NCBI RefSeq assembly: GCF_988243305.1
Contig: NZ_OZ547136.1
Strand: one strand, 5' to 3'
DNA length: 64,000 bases
The first letter of the stretch is position 1, and every line of letters starts with the position of its first letter. Shown here piece by piece: positions 18,901 through 24,900 of the stretch. The position numbers were made by a program.

Positions 18901-21900
18901 AAATTCAATGAGCGCCTCACTATGCTGGTGCGATGGCGGTGTTAATTTCCCATTTTCTGAGATGGTTATTTTCCCGCCATCTCCGTATACAACAAAGGAT
19001 GGCCGGTTACACTCCCATTCCTGATCTTTATCAGGTGCAGACGCAATAAAATAACGTTTATTTCCTTCCTCTCCGGCACTTTTAACCGTAATGGAGTACT
19101 CAGACTGCAGACAAGACGCCTCTTTTTCTGACCGCAGTGTTGACGGCGGCATCTTCAGAGAACCAGTAATTCTTCCCGGTAGCTTTCCTTTGTAGGTTAT
19201 CAACACATCCTGCGCCTCTAAAATTATGGGGCGCTTTTCCGGCGACAGCTCATCCCCTTCACATAACCCGGCAGCAACATCCAGGAAGACCTGTCTGATG
19301 CTCCTTCTGGCTGCTGCCTCATAAAACTCCAGCGCGGCACCTTCAACACGGTCCAGCGAGATGTCCAGGTCAAAAATTTCACCGTCAAAGCGTTTTTTGT
19401 CCCGTAACGCTAAAGTTACCGTAACTTTATTCTCAAAATTGCGGATCCCTTTCACAATCAGTTCATAGTTTTGAGTCATTGAATTACTCTCCCCGTGCAG
19501 CCTTACGACGGTCCTCTCTGATTTTGAAATACAGGTTAGTCAGATATGTCAGCAGCCCAAACAGCAGACTCCCCAGCACGCCTATTGCCGCCCACTGAGA
19601 CGGGGAAACCCTGTCCAGCAACTGCAGGAACCAGTAGCCCGTTCCCACCGCTGACGTGGTGTATGACACACCTGTTGTGATTTTTTCCATCTGGTACATA
19701 CCCCGTCTCCCGTTATCCGGAAGCTGACAACAATAAAAAAAGCCACCAGTTAAGTACTGATGGCTCTGATAACTCATGCAGGCATCTCAGACGACCCACT
19801 GACACTACCGGTGAGTTTAACGATACCTTCCATTTGACTGGCTCACTTTTTATGATGATGCCGGTGCATTTATCTCCAGCACCAGACTTTCTATCTCAAC
19901 GCCATACGCTGCATTTTTGGTAATATCCGTCAGCGTCAGCGCATTCAGCCCCAGTGTCAGACTGTCTTTTATGACCTGGAATGCCGGGCCAGCCACTCCA
20001 TTCAGTTTCGGAGTAACCGTGGCACTGCCGGCGGTGAACACCAGTTCCAGCGTCTGCCAGTCATTACTGTAATTCCCGAACTCGCCCAACTTTGTGTTTC
20101 CTGCTTTCTTGTGATGCATCAGATTCAGTTTGCCGTCTGTGGTCTGGGTGAAGAACGACATCAGGAACGGGTTACCAGTCCCGGCCATCGCCACGACGTC
20201 AGGTAACGCTACATCGGTATACAGATAAATTCCCAGGCCGAACTGGTTGTTGGTCAGTGCGCCTGACAGTCGAAACTTACAGCTCAGTCTGCCACCCCGT
20301 GTCAGCAGGGAGACTGCGTCATCCACCGGATGCATCAGGGACCAGGTTTTATTGCTCTGCTTGGCGATCTTAAATACACCACCCGACAACTGAATTCCGC
20401 CGTCCTTAATGGTCCAGCCCTGCGCAGCAGCCTCTCCGGCTGTCGGCAACAGGGAGATTGTGCGTACGGATGCATCTTCAGACGGCCCCGATGGCGTGTT
20501 GCCGCCGGGCGAGGGTTTGATTTCCGGTGCCTTACCACTGATGAAAGCTGAGGTGCGCCCGGCTGCGTTCAGAATAGCGGTTGCCATACGATCCGGAATA
20601 ATGCTCCTGCGCGCCCATGAACTGAAATGTGTCGGGCGGTTTGATGATACCTGGTTTCCATTCGTTCTCGATGCCGCACCGTAATATCCTGATGCCGGAA
20701 TATCCGGATCTTCTGCCGGTGCGTTAGTGGCGGTATTGACGCCGTTACCGTCTGTCATGAAGGGCACAAAATAAACGCCCTCACTCTCCCTGTTTTTATA
20801 CCCGCCGTACACGGTGTCGTACTGGGTAGCGTATGTATTTTTCCAGTAATACGTCGTGTCACCACAAATCCACGGCACATTTACAGCACTACCACCATGA
20901 CACTGCGCGTTAAACACAGTGAGGTCAGCACGAAACTGCTTCAGCATGGCTGTAAACAGCGCAGGTTGCTGTGCGTAGGTGGCGGCGTTCATGTCAAACT
21001 CTCCCTGCATCCAGCACACCGCCAGCAACACATTTTTCGGGTTCTTCTGTAATGCAGCTTTAGTGCGCGCAATCAGGTCCTGATATAACGGTTTACCCAC
21101 ACCCCAGCGTGCCGAATCCTGGCTGGCCCCCGCGTCCGCACTGAATGTCCCCTCCGCGCCCTTGGTGAATGCCGAACCACCACGACAGCATGGTACCAGC
21201 AGGATCCCCGCGTTATTCGGGATATACGGGAGCAGTTTTTTGGCAATATGTAAGCCCTGGCCGACACAGCCGTACTGCCCTTTGCTCAGGTCTGCCTTCG
21301 GATGATTCAGCGTACTCATATCCTGCACATCATGCAGACAGTGGTCAGCCGGGATGATGTCGTTATACGTACAACTCTCTCCACCCGGAGTTACCGTGCT
21401 GCGGCGCGCCAGCTGTTTAATGCGCGGATCCGGAGCATCGTAAGAATCCGGTAACGGAAGCCCTTCACCGTAGGCCATGCCGTTGGACTGTCCGGCAAGC
21501 ACAACCACGTAGAACCAGTCCGGCTCAGATGAAGGGCCGACCTGTGGATCTCCTTCAATAGCCACCGCCTGCATCAGTGTGTACGGCGTAATGGCAACCG
21601 GTCCGCCATATGGCTGCCAGCCCTCTTTCAGTTTGTGTGTCAGCTTTTCCGCAAGGTCTGACGGCGACGCCGCCCTGACAACATCATAGTGTTTAAATGC
21701 CATGAATCCTCCCGGCCGGGATAATATTGTGAGTAAAATGAGGAGCGGGCTGAAGTCCGGAAGTTACAGGACAATGGCAGAAGAGAGACAATAGCCCGCA
21801 ATACGAAAAAGGCCGCGCTATTGCGCAGAGTGATTACTGTCAGATATTATTCGCCAGCTGAAATATTACTTCACGTTTTGTTGTTTATTCCTTGCCGCCC

Positions 21901-24900
21901 GCGTCTCCCTGCGCGGGATTTTTTTGTCCATAAGAAAGCCCCTCCGGAGAGGGGCTGGAGAGTGGCGCTATGTGCCATTGCATGGTGCCGGGTGCCTCCC
22001 GGTGAATTCAGTACCAGCACCTGAATCCGCGATTATCCCATATACCTACTCGCTGATTGCCCCTCCGCACAGGGGGATTCACCATGCCAGTTTCTTTTAA
22101 CAAACTCCCCGCAAAACAGACAACTGTCAACCGTCTGAATTGTGAGACATTTAAAAAAAAGGCCCGCAAAAGCGAGCCAGGGAAAATAAGTGTGGCGCGT
22201 TGTACTGGATTCGAACCAGTGACCGATTGCTTAGAAGGCAATTGCTCTGTCCGGCTGAGCTAACAACGCAGGGTACAGATAATGGACCGCCATCGAGGAC
22301 TCGAACCCCGCGCAACCAGCTTCGAAGGCTGGCGCTCTATCCTGATGAGCTAATGGCGGTATGTGATGGTGGCCCTTGCTGGATTTGAACCAGCGACCTG
22401 GCGATTATGAGTCGCTCTCACCACTGAGCTAAAGGGCCGGGAGCCGCATAATAACGACGCGTAATTAATTCTTCAATATCATCCGTTCTGGCTGACTAAA
22501 TCCTGTACTTCCCGAACCGTCTGCTCAAAACATTCAGTCTCCAGCTCAACGCCAATTGCACGACGCCCGAGCGCCAGTGCTGCTTTGACGCTACGGACAT
22601 AAAAAAGCCAGCCACTGGGGGAGGCTGGCGAAACTCGTAGAGCAAAAGTGTTGTTACACTAACTTCGTCACAGGGTTATCCTGCAATACTCAAAATACAC
22701 AATATTTACAAAACTAATAGTATACAAGGCGATCTTTAAGATTTTGTTATAAATTATTGCCTTTCTCCTCTTTCCATGAGCTTTCTGGGTAGCCACAGAA
22801 TTCCGGGTACAGAAAAACCCGCTCAGCGGCGGGTTTAAGCTGTGTGACGAAGTAACCACTCTTAACAGCATAACCAATTTTTTACGTACGTAAACCACTA
22901 AATGATATTTGCGAGAATGCTACCGAGTATTGAAAACACCACTACAAATACATAAGCAAATCTCAACAAATAACCAACAAATAATTTCCAGTGTTATTTT
23001 TAGCCGGTTTAAATTGAACCTTCAAATTATAGAGCACTTATAAATAACAGCCGTTAATATAAATTGGCTAATAGATTTATTTTTATTCAGCCAAGAGCCA
23101 TGAATAGGATTCGATAGAAAAAAGTTCAGATAAAAATAGAGATCTACTTCACAAATCAAACGAGAAACCAAAACTAACATCTTGAAATAATCACATTGAT
23201 TAGATGAATATTTATCGCGCAGTGACATCATTTTTTAATAATAGTTCAAAAAAAGGGCTCACGATGAAAAAATTAACAGTGGCAATTTCTGCTGTAGCTG
23301 CATCAGTACTGATGGCGATGTCTGCTCAGGCAGCTGAAATTTATAATAAAGACAGTAACAAGCTGGATCTGTACGGGAAAGTTAATGCTAAGCACTATTT
23401 CTCCTCTAATGATGCAGATGATGGTGATACTACTTATGCCCGTCTTGGCTTCAAAGGTGAAACCCAAATCAACGATCAACTGACTGGTTTCGGTCAGTGG
23501 GAATATGAATTCAAAGGCAACCGCGCTGAATCTCAAGGTTCCTCCAAAGATAAAACCCGTCTTGCCTTCGCTGGCCTGAAATTCGGTGACTACGGCTCAA
23601 TCGATTACGGCCGTAACTACGGTGTAGCATACGACATCGGTGCGTGGACTGACGTTCTGCCAGAATTCGGTGGCGATACCTGGACCCAAACAGATGTGTT
23701 CATGACTGGTCGCACCACTGGTGTTGCAACTTATCGTAACAACGACTTCTTTGGTCTGGTTGATGGTCTGAACTTTGCTGCTCAGTATCAGGGTAAAAAT
23801 GACCGCACTGACGTAACTGAAGCTAATGGTGATGGTTTCGGTTTCTCCACTACTTATGAGTATGAAGGATTCGGTGTAGGTGCAACCTATGCTAAATCTG
23901 ACCGCACTAATAATCAGGTTATCTACGGTAACAACAGCCTGAATGCATCTGGTCAAAATGCTGAAGTATGGGCAGCTGGTCTGAAATATGATGCGAACAA
24001 CATCTATCTGGCTACCACCTATTCTGAAACCCAGAACATGACTGTTTTTGGTAATAACCATATTGCCAACAAAGCACAAAACTTCGAAGTAGTTGCACAA
24101 TATCAGTTCGACTTCGGTCTGCGTCCGTCCGTTGCTTACCTGCAATCTAAAGGAAAAGACTTGGGTGCGTGGGGTGATCAGGACCTGGTTGAATATATTG
24201 ATGTAGGTGCAACCTATTACTTCAACAAAAATATGTCCACTTTTGTTGATTACAAAATCAACCTGATTGATAAGAGCGATTTCACGAAAGCATCTGGCGT
24301 TGCTACCGATGATATCGTTGCTGTAGGTATGGTTTACCAGTTCTAATTTGATTACTAAAAGATATGTTGCGGGAGGCTTTGCCTCCCCAACATATAAGTG
24401 GCTCCCTCAAGCCACTTCCTTTAGGAGCACAACCTTGCTTCTAACTATATAAACCTTCTGTTATATATTACCCTTTATTTTTGGGGGCGTTGCAACGCCC
24501 CATTTTTAATAATTTTTAGTAAACAATTGGCATATTAATTAGAGTTATTAACAACGATATCCATCTCTAACCGGATATCTAATGCCATTAACATCCCTTC
24601 AATTATGCCCTCAGCCTTCTGTAACCTTTTCCCGATATAACCATCAGAGCAGCAATGCTTACCTGCCAGTGACATGAATGTCATACCGACTACATAATAA
24701 TCTACTAATAAATCGTGCAAATCGCTGTTGTTCTTTTTCAGACGGGCCATGCACCCGCAAATAATCATCGCGTCATCGTCACAACATTGCGGGCGAGATT
24801 TTACTTTTGAAGTAATTAATCCCTTAAAACCGGCGGCAATGGACGACCAGGTCACATCTTCATGATTATTAGCCGCCCACGCTCCCCAGCGTTCGAGAAC

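Follow-up and report, generated by a model that had tools for sequence, protein, structure and literature searches.

The late region of a Shiga toxin-free lambdoid prophage with an unoccupied stx slot

Shiga toxin (Stx)-converting phages carry stxAB on the late strand, between a group of tRNA genes and a gene for a NanS-p-type esterase. A prophage in which the same scaffold stands without the toxin raises the question of whether the toxin has been lost or was never there. We addressed this question for a stretch of 64 kb (contig NZ_OZ547136.1 of assembly GCF_988243305.1; a single strand, hereafter the window), in which the late operon of a prophage reads on the - strand. An earlier description, made from the sequence alone (the sequence-only reading), had noticed three tRNA genes, a NanS-p-like esterase gene and the lysis genes S, R and Rz in this order on the late strand, and had regarded the locus as either an stx-free relative or an stx-deleted derivative of an Stx-converting phage. 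With a probability of roughly 0.88, we conclude that the region forms the Q-dependent late leader of a lambdoid prophage in yecE, mosaic and stx-free, which lacks the toxin cassette and did not lose it.

The scaffold itself proved to be as described. ARAGORN, Rfam, Pfam and PHROG searches recovered the tRNA genes, the esterase gene and S, R and Rz in their places on the late strand. The whole follows the order of an Stx-converting phage, namely the antiterminator gene Q, the late promoter PR' with its terminators tR', the tRNAs, the stx position, nanS-p, S, R and Rz, but stxA and stxB are missing from the late region. With Stx1A/B and Stx2A/B as tblastn queries, nothing better than E 0.5 was found in the whole window and nothing in 21704-22192, and the stx1 and stx2 cassettes gave by blastn solely chance matches of 14-21 nt elsewhere in the window.

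An alignment to an Stx2a phage integrated in yecE, which the sequence-only reading had proposed as a check, located the missing cassette precisely. In a pairwise BLAST comparison with the locus of the phage Stx2_12E129_yecE (L002), the flanks are collinear on both sides of the cassette, as expected if this is the scaffold that carries stxAB. Window 21596-22149 aligns with L002 4893-5469, downstream of stx2B, and window 22152-22589 aligns with L002 6802-7244, on the tRNA side. Between the two blocks the phage holds 1,332 bp comprising stx2A and stx2B, and the homology breaks solely at window 22150/22151 (- strand). The window is the exact unoccupied form of the stx slot, with its junction defined to 2 bp. 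The left edge of this moron slot is formed by a hairpin directly past the last tRNA, GGCTCGCTTTTGCGGGCC followed by T8 (22153-22178, -; terminator scan). The hairpin and its T-run are kept in the Stx2a phage, where the stx2 cassette begins right after them on the late strand and ends just before TGTCTCACAATTCAG (late strand). The same right-hand boundary motif is present in the Stx1 phage VT1-Sakai.

The interval between the esterase gene and the tRNAs (21704-22192) had been described as 489 bp with hairpins and no toxin open reading frame (ORF). Its length, its hairpins, four of them terminator-like, and the absence of stx and of any ORF of note were all borne out; it is not empty, however, as it holds two convergent small RNA (sRNA) genes. 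Similarity of the interval to the flanks of Stx phages, a check set beforehand, was found: used as a query, the interval matches 288 phage records, its positions 1-446 being 86% identical to the stretch from the stx2B stop codon to nanS-p of Stx2a phages and its positions 1-306 being 94-98% identical to Stx1 and Stx2a phages.

The slot is a recurrent junction, at which the homology to the tRNA-less phage PhiR5_1 also stops (window 22157). Elsewhere it holds other cargo (loci L008 2500-3490 and L011 1470-3250): in many E. coli genomes a DUF3927-gene segment of about 0.6 kb lies between the tRNAs and the region of the sRNA family STnc100, with iraM beyond, and ISEc13 occupies the slot in prophage PP6 of E. 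coli E2348/69. Just ahead of STnc100, the right edge of the slot carries a perfect -35 hexamer, TTGACA (22125-22130, -), which the Stx2a phage has kept and VT1-Sakai has not; it is not followed by a convincing -10 element.

To place the empty junction among other genomes, we used a query of 401 nt spanning STnc100, the junction and two tRNAs against 5,426 complete E. coli genomes. At a coverage of at least 80%, the query was matched in 1,739 of them, about a third, a count that takes in loci with slot inserts up to about 0.7 kb and so overstates strictly empty sites. Because the matches are this widespread and include a non-Stx prophage of EDL933, the scaffold is not Stx-specific, and the sequence-only reading of the scaffold as a sign of Stx-phage descent was not supported. 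The tRNA/nanS-p genes belong to a set of modules that lambdoid phages have in general and do not testify to Stx-phage ancestry, and Stx phages appear as the same scaffold with a toxin cassette placed in the slot. The parts also occur in other combinations: PhiR5_1 has STnc100 and the esterase without the tRNAs, PhiR49_2 has the tRNAs followed by the holin without the esterase, and an Stx2k phage has the tRNAs and stx with iraM in place of nanS-p.

The closest relatives of the late region are likewise free of the toxin. Stx-free loci are 98-100% identical to it, and in E. coli O111:H21 15A the whole segment from Q to the holin is present at 99%. The flanks of Stx phages are more distant, with an identity of 91% next to the tRNAs and of 79-87% next to the sRNAs. 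Since the window holds no stx fragment, the Stx-phage flanks are 79-91% identical and the stx-free loci 98-100% identical, no recent loss is indicated. Of the two descriptions offered earlier, that of an stx-free relative therefore stands, while the stx-deleted derivative found no support.

The genes upstream of the slot bear on whether this late leader could still work. On the late strand, it starts with an antiterminator Q of the QuuD type (24535-24918, -; phrog_79), 97% identical in DNA to quuD of the K-12 prophage DLP12 and 78% identical in protein to Q of VT1-Sakai. Between Q and PR', and opposed to the late operon, lies an intact porin gene of the NmpC/Lc type (23264-24346, +; NCBIfam porin OmpC subfamily, E 1.3e-155). 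Its region is 92-97% identical to nmpC of DLP12, where IS5 breaks the gene, and the same Q/porin/PR' arrangement is found there; the idea that the porin gene is a novel insertion between Q and PR' was rejected on this K-12 comparison. The putative PR' (22867-22894, -; -35 TTTACG, -10 TATGCT) was assigned by aligning the window with Nil3 and with the late promoter annotated in VT1-Sakai (AP000400). By homology to the annotated terminators of both phages, its leader (22601-22835, -) would contain two terminators, the tR' hairpins at 22813-22835 and 22601-22629. Of the eight positions of the annotated qut octamer, three are different here. Across 19400-25000, 11 terminator-like sites were counted, as compared to 5.0 +/- 2.2 in shuffled sequence. 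Between the PR' leader and the tRNAs is a 114-bp 3' remnant of a DNA adenine methyltransferase gene (22478-22591, -), which shares 91% identity with the 3' end of the Stx2a-phage methylase gene and is annotated as a pseudogene in a homologous locus by the Prokaryotic Genome Annotation Pipeline (PGAP). The full methylase gene occupies this place in the yecE-type Stx2a phages, and the stub is common to Nil3 and O111:H21 15A.

The stretch of about 160 nt from the porin stop codon to the hairpin at 24484-24501 (24347-24510, +) is 97% identical to DLP12. IpeX, a 167-nt RNA, is processed from the phage porin transcript according to a review, and by its position this stretch could correspond to it. 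Our initial assumption that IpeX is the PR' leader RNA was dropped, since the review derives it from the porin transcript.

ARAGORN found exactly three tRNA genes in the whole window, all on the - strand within 22193-22438. A CAT-anticodon tRNA of the tRNA-Ile2 type, ileZ-like (22367-22438), is followed by an argN-like tRNA-Arg with anticodon TCG (22283-22359; Rfam 56 bits) and an argO-like tRNA-Arg with anticodon TCT, which reads AGA/AGG (22193-22269; Rfam 70 bits). The order CAT, TCG, TCT downstream of PR' is that of the phage cluster ileZ-argN-argO, and identity to the Stx2a-phage cluster on this side is 91%. In codons per 1000, AGA reaches 9.0 in the phage early and lysis genes against 1.8 in the chromosomal genes of the window, AGG about 5 against 0.6, and AUA about 9.5 against 3.5; AGA and AGG are thus about 5-9 times commoner in the prophage genes, and the three codons as a set about 2.7 to 9 times, an excess that fits the anticodons of the phage tRNAs.

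The first tRNA gene is unusual. PGAP labels the identical gene of O111:H21 15A as tRNA-Ile. The gene scores 58 bits in Rfam with a 4-nt gap and an unpaired anticodon stem, and by alignment it is 72 nt long as compared to 76 nt in the Stx2a phage, Nil3 and EDL933 copies. The 4-nt deletion falls at the junction of the D-stem and the anticodon stem, where one GAGC unit of GAGCGAGC is gone; the two stems therefore compete for the same bases and cannot both form. Judged from this predicted fold, the tRNA is probably impaired and its function doubtful. The variant is rare: among the 3,066 E. coli records with this tRNA region, only three are at least 99% identical to it, and the remainder carry the four extra bases. 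O111:H21 15A and the river isolate B1-56 match it at 100%.

Such damage could mean that the prophage is cryptic, that its late leader no longer works, and that the tRNAs, sRNAs and esterase are relics. Besides the rare tRNA-Ile2 deletion, the reduction of the methylase gene to a stub, the replaced C-terminus of Q and a porin gene between Q and PR' as in the cryptic DLP12 would all be expected of a decaying prophage, and its left end is outside the view of the window. Against this, the late ORFs examined are full length (the esterase, holin, endolysin, Rz and virion genes about 97% like those of lambda), the porin gene is intact, unlike that of DLP12, the integrase and replication genes are intact ORFs, and both sRNAs are near-identical to expressed homologues. 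We consider decay of the late region unlikely on this balance.

The two sRNA genes lie in the interval beside the slot. The first, on the late strand, belongs to the STnc100 family, is related to PasD, and ends in a hairpin at 21937-21956 (21926-22116, -). Its match to Rfam RF02076 covers the full model (positions 1-206) with 139.2 bits against a gathering threshold of 47 (E 2e-31); it has an internal deletion of about 14 nt as compared to the Stx-phage copies, which score 160-177 bits. STnc100 occupies the same relative position in the Stx2a phage, VT1-Sakai (Stx1), the stx-free amplicon record Nil3, PPwrbA_EH2201 and PhiR5_1. In the Stx2a phage it sits 75 nt after stx2B, in agreement with the published placement of STnc100 75 nt after stx2B (PMC12370729). 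The RNA has been detected elsewhere by reverse transcription PCR in vesicles of Stx-producing E. coli, and a 2026 preprint ties STnc100 to the PasD sRNAs, which precede sialic-acid esterase genes in prophages. Window 22087-22048, in the 5' part of STnc100, resembles the first 40 nt of PasD2 of enteropathogenic E. coli (EPEC).

The second sRNA gene is convergent to the first, on the strand opposite to the late operon, and was assigned by homology to the EcOnc08/21/42 group (21744-21925, +). It is identical at 178 of 182 positions to the 182-nt RNA E2348C_1409.E2348C_1408.IGR of EPEC E2348/69, which has been delimited by RNA-seq and by RNA interaction by ligation and sequencing (RIL-seq), has the enterohaemorrhagic E. 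coli homologues EcOnc08/21/42, and forms Hfq-dependent chimeras with cfa, dppA and tir in EPEC. A seed-like CCUUGCC is kept just ahead of its terminator (21898-21917, followed by T7), and this terminator abuts that of STnc100 at 21937-21956. A promoter-like site matching at 9 of 12 positions lies upstream, at 21697-21725. The 5' part of the RNA is antisense to the nanS-p leader, and from this overlap a cis effect on nanS-p, besides the trans targets known in EPEC, is conceivable. Tree et al. 2014 (PMC4104026) described the region downstream of PR' as one that takes up morons and showed Hfq-bound convergent sRNAs there in O157:H7 Sakai. By position and orientation, the sRNA pair of the interval corresponds to the moron site with convergent sRNAs of that study. 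The short anti-sRNAs AsxR (RF02703) and AgvB (RF02702) gave no match at E <= 1 in window 16000-26000, and the convergent + strand RNA belongs to another group.

The interval could also be taken for a mere terminator spacer that keeps transcription of the tRNAs from reaching nanS-p and the lysis genes, with incidental RNA-family matches. Its four terminator-like hairpins would suit such a spacer, and among possible STnc100 promoters none had a good -10 element. Nevertheless, the Rfam score is far above threshold, STnc100 is conserved at this position across phages with differing flanks, the + strand RNA shares 98% identity with an EPEC RNA that is bound by Hfq and has mapped targets, and Hfq-bound convergent sRNAs have been shown at this very position in O157. 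A spacer of this kind is thus very improbable.

Descent from an Stx-converting phage, with stxAB removed in a precise deletion of 1.3 kb, we regard as hardly credible: the break with a same-site phage falls within 2 bp exactly at the cassette, the early region and integrase are related to those of yecE-type Stx phages, and a 5-bp ATCTG, which could be due to chance, occurs at both cassette ends in the Stx2a phage, but no stx remnant is left, the flanks are no closer to Stx phages than reported above and the esterase just 53% identical in protein, the stx-free loci are near-identical, the empty junction is common, and the virion module is lambda-type, unlike that of the Stx phage sharing the integrase. 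A precise ancient deletion is an unnecessary assumption.

Several points nonetheless count against our reading of the region as a late leader that never held the toxin. A clean junction alone cannot separate an ancestral empty site from a precise deletion, and the inclusion of partly filled sites in the genome count was noted above. The left prophage end falls beyond the window. The C-terminus of Q differs from that of the Q of VT1-Sakai, whose PR' region it is paired with, and PR', qut and both sRNA promoters were assigned by homology or weak consensus alone. Given the poor -10 element of STnc100, this RNA may be processed from the late transcript.

Gene order, domains, RNA family matches, hairpins and codon bias come directly from the DNA; the transcription steps proposed here follow the paradigm of lambda and the Stx phages. 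The late strand is laid out from the QuuD-type Q, past the opposed NmpC porin gene, to PR' with two tR' terminators, the methylase remnant, the three tRNAs and the hairpin, and on to the empty slot at 22150/22151. Past the slot come STnc100, the convergent sRNA on the other strand, nanS-p, the holin, a DUF1327 gene, the endolysin, Rz and the lambda-type virion genes. By analogy, PR' transcripts in the lysogen would stop at tR', while upon induction the Q-modified polymerase would pass about five hairpins, so that the tRNAs, nanS-p, the lysis and the virion genes would be expressed together. The tRNAs would then supply decoding of AUA and AGA/AGG, which the phage genes use more than the host, with the AUA-reading tRNA probably crippled. 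For both sRNAs, synthesis in the lysogen from separate promoters is probable, and they would act through Hfq on host mRNAs, as the EPEC homologue does.

The remainder of the prophage is consistent with a mosaic. A tyrosine integrase gene and the junction of the prophage with yecE (att near 41193-41199), followed by the 3' part of yecE, lie within 39439-41504 (+; NCBIfam tyrosine recombinase matches). The ORF at 40779-41504 matches positions 32-272 of the 272-aa profile PRK10302, which we take to be YecE, an assignment that also draws on the K-12 gene order. It is followed by cmoA and by ORFs that fit cmoB, torZY, argS, flh and che in size and order. Because this yecE-like ORF, cmoA and further chromosomal genes come after the integrase, the prophage is placed in yecE, with the integrase beside an att site inside the gene. 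The phage records named for yecE, as well as phiP27, stop at window 41185-41199.

The statement in the sequence-only reading that yecE is a reported Stx2-phage integration site was accurate. The gene is documented as an integration site of Stx phages (PMC8065619), and yecE-type Stx2a, Stx2d and Stx1a phages, as well as phiP27, share 88-89% identity with the early region and its integrase. To PhiR49_2, a phage without stx, this stretch (25001-41193) is 95.7% identical, and the ORFs for the integrase and for replication are intact. Phage lambda is the counterpart of the virion module, from window 1 to about 16981, at an identity of about 97%. On these similarities, the prophage is a mosaic of a P27/yecE-type integrase, a DLP12-type QuuD and NmpC porin, and lambda-type virion genes. 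Against the 5,426 complete E. coli genomes, the chromosomal flank (41600-64000, cmoA to cheA) attains an identity of 98.5% at most, none reaching 99%; the source lineage therefore seems poorly represented among them. No complete E. coli genome matched the late region at 99% or more over its full length.

The esterase gene (19850-21703, -; phrog_143) encodes a sialate O-acetylesterase of 617 aa, and the domain search agreed with the NanS-p-like character claimed for it. The protein has the NanS-p layout, with an N-terminal DUF1737 (residues 3-49), a central catalytic SASA domain (66-262) and a C-terminal lectin-like part assigned to DUF6645 (467-577) in Pfam; residues 60-379 match E. coli NanS (PDB 3PT5, E 1.7e-120), and residues 422-613 match the C-terminal domain of NanS-p (6YP6, E 6.6e-29). 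As compared to NanS-p of the Stx2a phage, it is 53% identical in protein over the full length, with a conserved GQSN motif and a gene body about 70% identical in DNA. By contrast, its DNA is 98% identical to that of prophage PP6 and 92% to that of prophage PP2 of E2348/69. The occurrence of nanS-p in non-Stx prophages is established in the literature (PMC8065619, PMC10462455), and EDL933 has seven active alleles. The non-Stx nanS-p prophages of EDL933 were described by Saile et al. 2016, as far as the summaries in PMC8065619 and PMC10462455 relate. NanS-p activity has been shown for alleles of EDL933 and O104:H4, the EDL933 prophage esterases acting on Neu5,9Ac2; by analogy with these homologues, the allele found here would remove 9-O-acetyl groups from sialic acids.

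According to a 2026 preprint on phi24B, a short-tailed Stx phage with a T=9 capsid, DUF1737 of NanS-p anchors the esterase on the central (facet-centre) hexons. In the present prophage, the well-conserved DUF1737 occurs alongside head genes that share about 97% identity with those of lambda. The lambda capsid is a T=7 shell of gpE and gpD without facet-centre hexons. It would be speculative, and we give the idea little weight, that DUF1737 also docks on lambda-type heads and that mucin-directed capsid decoration is a module portable across lambdoid virion types. Another possibility is that the esterase is pure lysogen cargo or lysis-released cargo in lambda-headed phages.

Downstream of nanS-p, the lysis genes were assigned as follows. 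A class II holin S (19484-19699, -) was identified by PHROG holin families and by PGAP annotation of a 99%-identical locus. An extra gene between S and R (18673-19479, -) encodes a 268-aa protein of the DUF1327/YdfR type (Pfam DUF1327 on residues 1-100; phrog_1085). Its counterpart in the Stx2a phage is 213 aa long, and those of other prophages have about 115 aa; the extra C-terminal part of the present protein matches solely PHROG families of unknown function. The endolysin R (17687-18220, -) was recognized as an ORF with an NCBIfam endolysin match and the PGAP label "lysozyme" in a homologous locus, and the Rz spanin (16577-17044, -) by phrog_13 (Rz-like spanin, E 4.5e-75). NCBIfam gave no named family for the esterase, the holin, Q or the DUF1327 protein. 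The gap between esterase and holin spans 150 bp here as compared to 448 bp in PP2 of E2348/69, and no homologue of PasA or PasC was found in it: PasA of E2348/69 (85 and 236 nt) had no blastn match at E <= 0.01. Of the chromosomal copies of PasA, fewer than 3% are reported to lie next to stx. Between the esterase stop and the holin start of the prophage stands a hairpin with a 12-bp stem followed by a T-run (19739-19767, -), which has no similarity to PasA; in PP2, PasA takes the place of this hairpin.

Since toxin-free late regions with tRNAs and nanS-p are a common state of E. coli lambdoid prophages, such a region is not to be read as the footprint of a lost Stx phage. The locus offers a clean natural case of an unoccupied toxin slot, with a 2-bp junction and both flanking sRNAs intact, and could serve as a reference empty site for mapping the entry of stx cassettes, iraM/DUF3927 and IS elements. 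With regard to risk, it is without toxin, yet it shows homology to Stx phages over several hundred bases on both sides of the slot. Because the homology exceeds 400 bp on each side of an exactly empty slot, uptake of stx is conceivable; as a minor possibility, the prophage could pick up stx by recombination, giving a lambda-morphotype Stx phage at yecE.

Every component of the region has already been described, and the arrangement is ordinary and known. DLP12 of K-12 (quuD-nmpC-essD) shares the QuuD, the opposed NmpC porin gene and the segment with PR' and the first terminator at 92-97% identity, but its nmpC is broken by IS5, and its holin gene follows directly after PR', without tRNAs, sRNAs or esterase. 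The moron site of Sakai described by Tree et al. 2014 shares the position between the PR' leader and a conserved large ORF (nanS-p) and the pairing of one late-strand and one convergent sRNA. It differs in that prophage Sp5 has stx2AB in the slot, empty here, and in the identity of the sRNAs, AsxR and AgvB having no counterpart in the Rfam search above.

The Stx phages at yecE are related in another way. The yecE Stx2a phages, such as Stx2_12E129_yecE (LC567842), and the Stx2e phage phiP27 use the same integration gene, have a related integrase and replication module (88-89%), and show the same order of tRNAs, slot, STnc100, nanS-p, S, R and Rz. They differ in carrying stx2AB in the slot and a full methylase gene, in lacking the porin gene, and in a NanS-p 53% identical in protein, while the virion genes of the present prophage are lambda-type, unlike those of the Stx phage that shares its integrase. 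A non-Stx prophage of EDL933 (O157:H7) gives a contiguous junction match at 98.3% and has tRNA-Ile/Arg/Arg, STnc100 and a SASA esterase without stx; its Q and upstream genes are different, and a transposase comes after it in place of an intact lysis cassette. In prophage PP6 of the stx-negative EPEC O127:H6 E2348/69, 98.2% DNA identity extends over window 19144-22072, from the YdfR-type gene through the holin and the 617-aa esterase to the + strand sRNA and a part of STnc100. PP6 differs in having ISEc13 between the tRNAs and STnc100, two annotated tRNAs, another Q and no porin gene, but it shows the same order of Q, tRNAs, sRNAs, esterase, holin and lysozyme.

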